Shown here in pieces: positions 31,347-32,387 of a stretch of 64,000 nt of DNA. The stretch is from NCBI GenBank assembly GCA_028281605.1, contig JANQJO010000114.1, forward strand, positions 20,711 to 84,710, read 5' to 3'. The stretch comes from Pseudomonadales bacterium. Its GTDB lineage: Bacteria; Pseudomonadota; Gammaproteobacteria; Pseudomonadales; JANQJO01. Each line of letters opens with the position of its first letter. The first letter of the stretch is position 1. The notes beneath the pieces are model-generated. The model was not told the DNA's origin and ran no database searches. It saw nothing but the letters and a program-made list of their open reading frames with translations. The position numbers and the translations under genes were made by a program.

Positions 31347-32387
31347 TTACTGCACCCTAAATCGTGCCATTTCTTCATATACGTACTTACGAACTCTATT
31401 GATCCCTCCAAGCGGCTTATGCTCCAATCTGCTTTGCCACGGGTTAAAAACCTGAGCCTCACAACTCGCAAGTGCTGCATCACTACTAAAATCTTGAAAC
31501 TTAATCGTAATCCTCGCTACAGTTTGAAATGGAGAAACTGCCTCATCCCAAATAACAGAAGCATCTTCAATAGGCATTTTATTAGAATCAGACTGAAATT
31601 GCACCATAAAGTCAAAACAAACTGGAGCCTTTTCTAGATGCTTTTGCATAGAAACCCGCTGATGATCTTCACCAAGCAATTGGCTAGGTAACTCAGTCTT
31701 AACTGCCGAACAAGGCCGCGCTGAATATTTCACAGCATGGTTCGTATTGACACCATAACGGTAAGGCGTCGTACTCCAATATGAAATATCAAAAGGACTG
31801 ACGTGATAACGGCGTGCTTTATTTAATAGGAACAATGACTTGATGTGCGAGTCAAAAGGATTGAAAAAAAACCAAGCCAAGTTATCCCGATCCAAGGCAC
31901 GAATAAAACTAAGAAAGTCCTTAGGTGTGGCCGCAAATAATGCCGGGTAACTGTTGAAAAGAAAATCTTGCGTACCAGGTTGTCCCCATAAAGATTCACC
32001 TCCAACTCCATAGACCTTGACTGATAAACCTCGCAGATCTTTTTCTCTGTCATCAAATTTACTGGCATTGGCAAAGCGCACCAACGCATCATAACGCAAA
32101 GGCTGAGCAAACAACCCTTGCTTAAGATGTTCAGCTAAACCTTCGATCACCTTAAAATCTGCGTTAAAGCAACCAAGTGTTTTCACTTGATTAAAGCGCT
32201 TCATCTCTGCTCTAGAATGTCGCTTTAAACTTACAGACTTGATCAAACGCACCATTTCACGAGCAATGTCATCCTCACCCGGCATGACCTGCTCTTGGCC
32301 CAGCTCAAGTTCAGACCGAACCCATGAAGCCAGGCACATCAGCACAACCAACAAAATAAAGCAGCAAAAATTTTGTTTAAGCTTCAT
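31347..32387 (-). CDS. exported catalase-related haemoprotein (truncated catalase core)
   Basis: Signal peptide. VRFANA, DLRGLSVKVYG (compare RGFAVKFY), QDFLFNSYPALFAATPKDFLSFI (compare WDLVGNNTPIFFIRD..FP.FI), and C-terminal RVRKYVYEEMARFR (compare RLFAYPDTHRHR, the Tyr haem ligand). Only 346 aa. Confidence 0.7.
   Translation of the reverse strand: MKLKQNFCCFILLVVLMCLASWVRSELELGQEQVMPGEDDIAREMVRLIKSVSLKRHSRAEMKRFNQVKTLGCFNADFKVIEGLAEHLKQGLFAQPLRYDALVRFANASKFDDREKDLRGLSVKVYGVGGESLWGQPGTQDFLFNSYPALFAATPKDFLSFIRALDRDNLAWFFFNPFDSHIKSLFLLNKARRYHVSPFDISYWSTTPYRYGVNTNHAVKYSARPCSAVKTELPSQLLGEDHQRVSMQKHLEKAPVCFDFMVQFQSDSNKMPIEDASVIWDEAVSPFQTVARITIKFQDFSSDAALASCEAQVFNPWQSRLEHKPLGGINRVRKYVYEEMARFRVQ

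Follow-up and report, generated by a model that had tools for sequence, protein, structure and literature searches.

A catalase-fold haem protein with glutamine at the distal-histidine position, encoded beside a fatty-acid alpha-dioxygenase homologue

Results

The minicatalase gene and its fold

The window analyzed here is a stretch of 64,000 nucleotides from contig JANQJO010000114.1 (positions 20,711 to 84,710, forward strand; assembly GCA_028281605.1, Pseudomonadales bacterium). It contains a gene for a short catalase-related haem protein, called here a Gln-type minicatalase after its motif RFNQxK, which stands between the gene for an exported homologue of the alpha-dioxygenases that act on fatty acids (alpha-DOX) and that for a small conserved protein, p149 (Table 1). 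The principal observation concerns Gln67 of the minicatalase, which lies in the alignment column that true catalases reserve for the catalytic distal His, and which is accompanied by a set of correlated changes in the surrounding haem pocket.

The minicatalase is modelled as a member of the catalase superfamily, nearest to the bacterial minicatalases; this fold assignment is secure because a confident AlphaFold2 (AF2) model finds its best structural matches in 3e4y, 1u5u and true catalases. The model (predicted local distance difference test score (pLDDT) 90.6, predicted template modelling score (pTM) 0.87) was built from an alignment, A1, of 28 minicatalase homologues with 49–57% identity. 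In Foldseek its top structures are the minicatalase MAP-2744c (3e4y, E 2.5e-14) and then coral allene oxide synthase (cAOS; 1u5u, E 2.5e-12), after which dozens of true catalases are ranked, with a probability of 1.00 to 3e4y, to 1u5u and to more than 40 catalases; the target-normalised template modelling (TM) score is 0.74 against the 33-kDa minicatalase and 0.43–0.49 against catalases. The family profile matches cAOS (E 8.7e-9) and the catalase 6rjn (E 7.7e-7). The first-pass annotation of this DNA had named the protein a mini-catalase, far shorter than true catalases, and had proposed structure prediction as a check; both the predicted minicatalase fold and the length of 346 residues agree with it. 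Subunits of true catalases (~55–84 kDa) have an N-terminal arm, a wrapping loop and a helical domain, a description that the present protein does not fit. Database homologues number 1340 and carry the source annotation 'catalase' or 'catalase family protein', and NCBIfam gave no match for the minicatalase.

As read from its N-terminus the Gln-type minicatalase is extracytoplasmic, because 103 of 114 full-length Gln-type proteins begin with a hydrophobic segment and 37 have a lipobox-like motif. Four Cys residues are invariant in the Gln-type proteins. In the wider family Cys226 and Cys257 are both present in 59 sequences and both absent from 63, with only one of them in 8, and Cys309 is almost always accompanied by Cys73; since Cys226 and Cys257 come as a pair and Cys309 needs Cys73, this co-variation suggests two disulfides. 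A 95-residue out-of-frame open reading frame (ORF) within the gene (31823-32110, minus strand) is probably a spurious by-product of the real gene.

Table 1. Features of the minicatalase locus (positions in the window)
Feature	Position	Strand	Remarks
Gln-type (RFNQxK) minicatalase gene	31347..32387	-	346 residues, intact ORF; catalase-fold haem protein
N-terminal export signal, ~residues 1-24 (MKLKQNFCCFILLVVLMCLASWVR)	32316..32387	-	read from sequence
Distal motif R64-F65-N66-Q67	32187..32198	-	from alignments; Arg64 corresponds to the haem-propionate Arg64 of cAOS (PMC5617202)
R104-F105-A106, counterpart of catalase RFS	32070..32078	-	profile alignment to 6rjn
N145-S146, Asn145 being the distal Asn	31950..31955	-	alignment to 1u5u; invariant at 80/80 loci
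Proximal haem-ligand segment R333-x3-Y337-x6-R344	31356..31391	-	does not vary in either group, Gln-type or His-type
Exported haem fatty-acid alpha-dioxygenase homologue	32406..35372	-	18 nt upstream of the minicatalase gene; Pfam An_peroxidase, E 2.7e-69
p149, conserved protein of 149 residues	30849..31298	-	48 nt downstream of the minicatalase gene; good Shine-Dalgarno sequence

Glutamine in the distal-histidine column

Codon 32187-32189 reads CAA and encodes Gln67. When the protein is aligned by phmmer with the Micrococcus catalase 1gwe, N66-Q67-V-K69 falls opposite P-H-A-K, and when the family profile is aligned with the fungal catalase 6rjn, RfnQaK falls opposite RvvHaK and RfA opposite RFS. 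A profile search of 1.8 billion cluster representatives gave 5453 related clusters, and 269 sequences were aligned to the family hidden Markov model (HMM) with hmmalign; of these, 134 have Gln and 130 have His in the Gln67 column, and sets of 131 Gln-type and 130 His-type proteins were taken for comparison. The His-type proteins, which have His at this position without exception (130/130), share the motif R-[DG]-A-H-[AP]-K-x-H-G-C. A separate MAFFT alignment reproduces the hmmalign register (RFNQxK versus R[DG]AH[AP]K), and in one His-type representative the His falls opposite that of RALHAK in 3e4w, a minicatalase of solved structure. Because four lines of alignment agree, Gln67 is assigned to the distal-His column. 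The first-pass annotation had placed Gln67 at this position and had named HMM and multiple alignment as the means of checking it; the gapped alignments keep Gln, not His, in the distal column, and a single-base sequencing error is excluded by the invariance of Gln67 in all 131 RFNQ-type homologues and at all 80 genome loci (one genome per GTDB species was scanned, giving 116 relatives, of which the best 80 loci were kept).

Three sequences that at first seemed to be further Gln bearers were set aside: P0211 and P0221 are misaligned and keep His, and P0143 is an unrelated VQ variant. In a neighbour-joining tree with midpoint rooting, 21 of 23 true RFNQ representatives form one pure clade; strict monophyly was not obtained.

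Judged from these alignments, the Gln-type minicatalase departs at the distal His from each class of relative with which it was compared. It has Gln67 in the column of the catalytic His of true monofunctional catalases; it has the compact fold of the MAP-2744c-like minicatalases and not their distal His; and in place of the Thr-His pair of the fatty-acid hydroperoxide enzymes of the cAOS and cHPL (coral hydroperoxide lyase) type it has Asn66-Gln67.

Coordinated changes in the distal pocket and retained haem ligands

The change at residue 67 does not stand by itself. Eight positions are fixed in the 131 Gln-type proteins in a form that is essentially absent from the 130 His-type proteins (Table 2). 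In true catalases the Ser of the RFS motif hydrogen-bonds the distal His, and in the Gln-type proteins this Ser is Ala106. Because Ala106 replaces the very residue that holds the distal His, the comparison indicates that His and its anchor are lost together, as one coordinated remodelling. The net outcome would be a distal pocket that is more polar and non-basic, lined by Asn66, Gln67, Ser122, Asn145, Ser146 and Ala106; N66, Q67, N145 and S146 are invariant in 80 of 80 genomes.

Table 2. Positions that distinguish Gln-type from His-type proteins
Position	Gln-type	His-type
65	F65	D/G
66	N66	A
67	Q67	H
106	A106 (131/131)	S (128/130)
122	S122	A
145	N145	I/A/V
150	L150	F
155	P155	A/V

In human catalase the distal residues are His75 and Asn148. 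The retention of a distal Asn, asserted by the first-pass annotation, is upheld, as Asn145 pairs with Asn137 of cAOS and with the first Asn of catalase GNNTP and does not vary among the 80 loci. Gln-type and His-type proteins alike retain the haem-binding residues R64, R104, R333, Y337 and R344, so that at the level of sequence the proximal Tyr with Arg at -4 and +7 and the propionate-binding Arg are all present, and the Gln-type minicatalase is inferred to bind haem. For cAOS the roles of R64, R102, N137, Y353, R360 and T66-H67 have been described (PMC5617202). Residues R64, R102, R360, N137 and Y353 correspond here to R64, R104, R344, N145 and Y337, and T66-H67 to N66-Q67.

The proximal ligand itself required a correction of register. 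A Tyr flanked by Arg at -4 and +7 had been recognized at first pass, and this pattern is indeed retained; the residue named, Tyr335 (codon 31383-31385), is not the ligand. The segment RVRKYVYEEMARFR can by coincidence be read in two registers, each with Arg at -4 and +7, and within the family only R333, Y337 and R344 never change, unlike Y335 and R331. The Tyr335 register was therefore ruled out by the variability of its column, and Tyr337 (codon 31377-31379), with Arg333 and Arg344, is taken as the true ligand.

The upstream dioxygenase

The dioxygenase, a member of the animal haem peroxidase family, comprises 988 residues from the listed TTG start; the true start is probably the ATG at 35357, five codons downstream. 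Its sole strong relatives in the PDB are plant alpha-DOX enzymes (rice 4kvj, E 4.6e-61; Arabidopsis 4hhr, E 1.9e-55). In a phmmer alignment with 4kvj the rice residues His157, His311, Trp315, Thr316, Phe375, Tyr379 and His382 are kept, as are Phe549, Phe552, Ile553, Ala556, Arg558 and Arg559; the aligned segments are QFMTHDW (distal His), IHTIEWT (H311/W315/T316), EEFTSVYRLH (F375/Y379/H382) and FHIFIINASRR (F549/F552/R558/R559). In alpha-DOX enzymes His311 and Arg559 bind the carboxylate, Thr316 places the alpha-carbon and Tyr379 is the radical site (PMC8720084). The set of residues by which an alpha-DOX would be recognized (catalytic Tyr379, distal His157, proximal His382, His311, Arg559 and Thr316) is thus complete in the present protein. 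Homologues of the dioxygenase show clear signal peptides or lipoboxes. Beyond the part shared with the plant enzymes the protein has a Cys-containing conserved N-terminal region (ACxxMxKxGLRPIADDRSERFLGKV..ARCRGG), an insert at about residues 555-640 and a C-terminal extension.

The downstream protein p149

The product of the downstream gene has no Pfam or NCBIfam match, and sequence searches of the PDB gave chance matches only. Its 1577 homologues (62–70% identity) make it more conserved than either haem enzyme. The AF2 model (pLDDT 76) is a helix-capped beta-barrel, for which Foldseek returns the uncharacterised Tcur_1030 (4mve, E 9e-5) at the top, and after it, as weak matches, lipocalins and proteins that bind retinoic acid or fatty acids; p149 is accordingly predicted to be a calycin-like beta-barrel. 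A 109-residue ORF antisense to p149 (30991-31320, plus strand) is probably a spurious by-product of the real gene.

Conservation of the locus

The three genes occur together in distant bacteria. By tblastn, 74 of the 80 loci have the dioxygenase directly upstream of the Gln-type gene and 74 have p149 directly downstream of it, in constant order and orientation, and the complete triad of dioxygenase, Gln-type minicatalase and p149 is kept in 73–74. The adjacency to a dioxygenase that would be expected of a cAOS- or cHPL-type enzyme is thus found. Among the carriers are Alteromonas, Sedimenticola, Methylomonas and other Methylococcales, Arenicellales, Desulfobulbales and Desulfuromonadales, together with metagenome-assembled genomes (MAGs) of Syntrophus, of a Myxococcaceae member and of an alphaproteobacterium; the loci span gammaproteobacterial, alphaproteobacterial and Desulfobacterota lineages. 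The closest His-type relative examined (P0128, with RFAHPK) has no adjoining dioxygenase. In Aliiglaciecola litoralis (L010:5514-7029) the Gln-type gene is divergent from a gene of the MAPEG family, which consists of membrane proteins of eicosanoid and glutathione metabolism.

At roughly 50–59 loci (for example L019:7486-11556 and L036) the triad continues with three more genes that are absent from the window, and Alteromonas and others share the three-gene form of the window. The additional genes encode a 433-residue protein with a central hydrophobic segment (p433), a 549-residue DyP-like protein and a 406-residue catalase-fold paralogue (p406); Pfam gave nothing for p433 or p406 of the related loci. 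In the 406-residue paralogue the distal-His column is occupied by Asn (RGGNTKTHG, 50/50) and position 145 by Val, Ile or Thr; its alignment marks it as an independent, second relative of the catalases that has no distal His. His-type minicatalase domains are found fused to DyP-like domains, which are N-terminal (P0166, P0187, P0253, P0221), or to RoxA-like dihaem cytochrome c domains, which are C-terminal (P0197, P0206, P0224). These fusions suggest that the catalase fold has repeatedly been recruited to partner haem oxygenases or peroxidases of other kinds.

In the window the locus is flanked by housekeeping genes, with flhF and flhA to one side (27027-30503) and dusB, fis and purH on the other (35849-37245; 37426-39054, plus strand). 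No clear sign of foreign DNA is seen in the composition profile at the locus, and a scan of 30400-36000 for promoters and terminators found no more sites than in shuffled controls. No other database sequence exceeds 57% identity to the host PurH, and GC content is about 40%; the host appears from these sequences to be a deeply branching, poorly sampled gammaproteobacterium.

Discussion

Proposed function and alternatives

In the catalase-related haemoproteins a single fold has been retuned, in what is a textbook example, from the dismutation of H2O2 to the chemistry of lipid hydroperoxides. On balance, the comparative evidence favours the view that the Gln-type minicatalase is a hydroperoxide-converting partner of the adjacent dioxygenase and not a catalase. 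That the conversion is specifically homolytic or of the lyase type is a more tentative suggestion, which stands at somewhat less than even weight, and the sequence alone would be compatible with a lyase, a dehydratase, a peroxidase or mere binding. The first-pass annotation had argued from the change of His to Gln for isomerase, lyase or binding chemistry on the product of the neighbouring dioxygenase. Action on that product now has comparative support in the order of the triad in 73–74 of 80 genomes and in the alpha-DOX residues that the dioxygenase keeps, and the earlier interpretation is plausible, strengthened by synteny and by the correlated substitutions.

In the proposed mechanism the three genes would form a periplasmic module of which the minicatalase is the second enzyme. 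The dioxygenase would convert free fatty acid in the periplasm to a hydroperoxide, most likely a 2-hydroperoxy acid because its alpha-DOX residues are conserved. This hydroperoxide would bind at the ferric haem of the minicatalase, where Gln67 and Asn145 would form hydrogen bonds with the peroxide, and the carboxylate beside it would be held by the added polar residues. The O–O bond would then be cleaved homolytically without a general base, in the manner of the CYP74 enzymes, which cleave the O–O bond using a distal Asn. Beta-scission of the resulting 2-alkoxyl radical would give a chain-shortened aldehyde and CO2; alternatively, dehydration would yield a 2-oxo acid, or reduction a 2-hydroxy acid. 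In each case a defined product would take the place of spontaneous hydroperoxide decay, and no dismutation of H2O2 would be expected.

A wider proposal, offered with comparable reserve to that on homolysis, combines these elements. The all-amide pocket (Asn-Gln with Asn-Ser) would dispense with acid-base catalysis and cleave an alpha-hydroperoxy-carboxylate homolytically, as part of an unrecognised but widespread periplasmic module for alpha-oxidation or oxylipin signalling in marine and sediment Proteobacteria. Such a module would consist of the exported alpha-dioxygenase, the Gln-type minicatalase and a calycin-like lipid binder, to which the six-gene form would add the DyP-like protein and the Asn-type paralogue.

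The closest structural neighbour invites a different explanation. MAP-2744c, which we take to be an organic-peroxide-dependent peroxidase, is the best match of the model, and fusions to DyP-type peroxidase-like domains recur in the wider family; the Gln-type protein might likewise be a peroxidase or detoxifier of organic hydroperoxides, which would use a periplasmic reductant to convert the hydroperoxide of the dioxygenase, or other lipid hydroperoxides, to the alcohol and would protect the envelope without making a specific product. The 2-hydroxy acid that such a reduction would give is a side product of alpha-DOX chemistry. This explanation is nevertheless unlikely, as the distal His that MAP-2744c and all 130 His-type relatives keep is gone from the Gln-type proteins together with its Ser anchor, the heterolytic formation of compound I normally needs a distal His, and the triad includes no gene that would supply a reductant. 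Loss of the catalytic His would also suit a protein that is not a catalyst at all. Both the minicatalase and the dioxygenase have Sec-type signals, so that the dioxygenase must acquire its haem outside the cytoplasm, and a haem- or lipid-binding accessory might deliver that haem, sequester the product or provide the 'peroxide tone' that activates the tyrosyl radical. A role of this kind seems improbable given that N66, Q67, N145 and S146 are invariant at all 80 loci, which fits an active site better than a carrier, and that all proximal and propionate ligands of a permanent haem are kept.

The annotation of the homologues as 'catalase' or 'catalase family protein', together with the retained fold, Tyr ligand and distal Asn, would agree with a working H2O2 catalase in which Gln67 and Asn145 replace the His/Asn pair, but this is very improbable. 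True catalases with an altered distal His are inactive (as with 3hb6, which bears the title 'Inactive mutant H54F of Proteus mirabilis catalase'), the protein lacks the additional domains that true catalases have, residue 66 is Asn and not the Val of catalases, and even cAOS, which has the His, does not scavenge H2O2 (PMC5617202). Only one third-position base separates CAA from CAT or CAC, and Gln67 could in principle mark a decaying or wrongly sequenced copy of a His-type gene; this explanation is refuted by the Gln found in 131 of 131 homologues and 80 of 80 loci, by the correlated changes at seven other positions and by the intact, full-length ORF, and its probability is negligible.

Returning to the hydroperoxide-converting partner, several observations weigh against it. 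The match of the minicatalase to Pfam Catalase is sub-threshold (E 1.7e-4, 21.3 bits versus the curated cut-off of 25). The Gln-type protein occurs without the dioxygenase at 6 of the 80 loci, of which five (L008, L010, L029, L063 and L079) have neither dioxygenase nor p149 and one (L013) lacks the dioxygenase and keeps p149, and no fusion of dioxygenase and minicatalase, which would establish their coupling, was found. The dioxygenase is ~350 residues longer than plant alpha-DOX. Both neighbours of p149 are exported and p149 itself lacks a signal peptide, which means that the three products may lie in different compartments. Finally, replacement of His by Gln in haem peroxidases strongly slows peroxide activation, and the minicatalase could be a slow enzyme or a mere binder.

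Significance and comparison with known systems

To our knowledge, every characterised catalase-related haemoprotein keeps the distal His, and the Thr-His pair has been proposed as a hallmark of hydroperoxide reactivity. A large clade, in more than 80 species, with Gln and Ala in place of His and its Ser anchor breaks the proposed Thr-His rule, and may serve as a natural experiment in O–O cleavage by a Tyr-ligated haem without a base. In the literature searched, neither a Gln-type catalase-related protein nor a dioxygenase/minicatalase/p149 operon is described, and the exported alpha-dioxygenase, the Gln-type minicatalase and the small barrel protein point to an uncharacterised bacterial pathway. 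Since aldehyde production makes alpha-DOX enzymes attractive to biotechnology, a partner that steers the fate of the 2-hydroperoxide could be useful.

True catalases (human, bovine, Micrococcus 1gwe and fungal 6rjn) and the window protein have a beta-barrel haem core in common and align in the Arg-x3-Tyr-x6-Arg motif, at the distal Asn and over the R-x-x-[H]-x-K strand. The window protein differs from them in having Gln for His, Ala for Ser and Asn for Val, and is ~150–400 residues shorter, without the wrapping and C-terminal domains. With MAP-2744c (Mycobacterium avium ssp. paratuberculosis, 33 kDa, 3e4w/3e4y) it has in common the compact catalase core (TM 0.66–0.74) and the proximal Tyr/Arg motifs; however, MAP-2744c has RALHAK with a distal His, whereas the window protein has RFNQVK, is exported, contains four conserved Cys and belongs to a dioxygenase operon.

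The Nostoc hydroperoxide lyase of the 'Thr-His' literature reportedly keeps the distal His. In Nostoc punctiforme a 10S-DOX is paired with this separate catalase-related 10S-hydroperoxide lyase (Brash et al. 2014, cited in PMC13049297). The resemblance to the present locus lies in the two-gene logic, a haem dioxygenase of the peroxidase-cyclooxygenase superfamily followed by a catalase-related protein that converts the hydroperoxide; the Nostoc dioxygenase, however, is cyclooxygenase-like and oxygenates C10, whereas that of the window matches plant alpha-DOX and keeps the carboxylate-binding residues. The coral enzymes cAOS (1u5u/3dy5) and cHPL likewise have the catalase core and act on the fatty-acid hydroperoxide of a partner dioxygenase, a likeness that the window protein would share by genetic logic. 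In corals a lipoxygenase is fused to cAOS or cHPL, and the catalase core yet does not scavenge H2O2 (PMC5617202). Identity between the window protein and cAOS is ~17%, and cAOS has T66-H67 and a fused lipoxygenase as partner, in contrast to N66-Q67 and a separate exported alpha-DOX homologue in the window. A functional analogue outside the cytoplasm is provided by the oleate-diol synthases PA2077 and PA2078 of Pseudomonas aeruginosa, which have unrelated, dihaem cytochrome c peroxidase-like folds and which, as exported haem enzymes, make and then convert a fatty-acid hydroperoxide (PMC4496055, PMC5155153).

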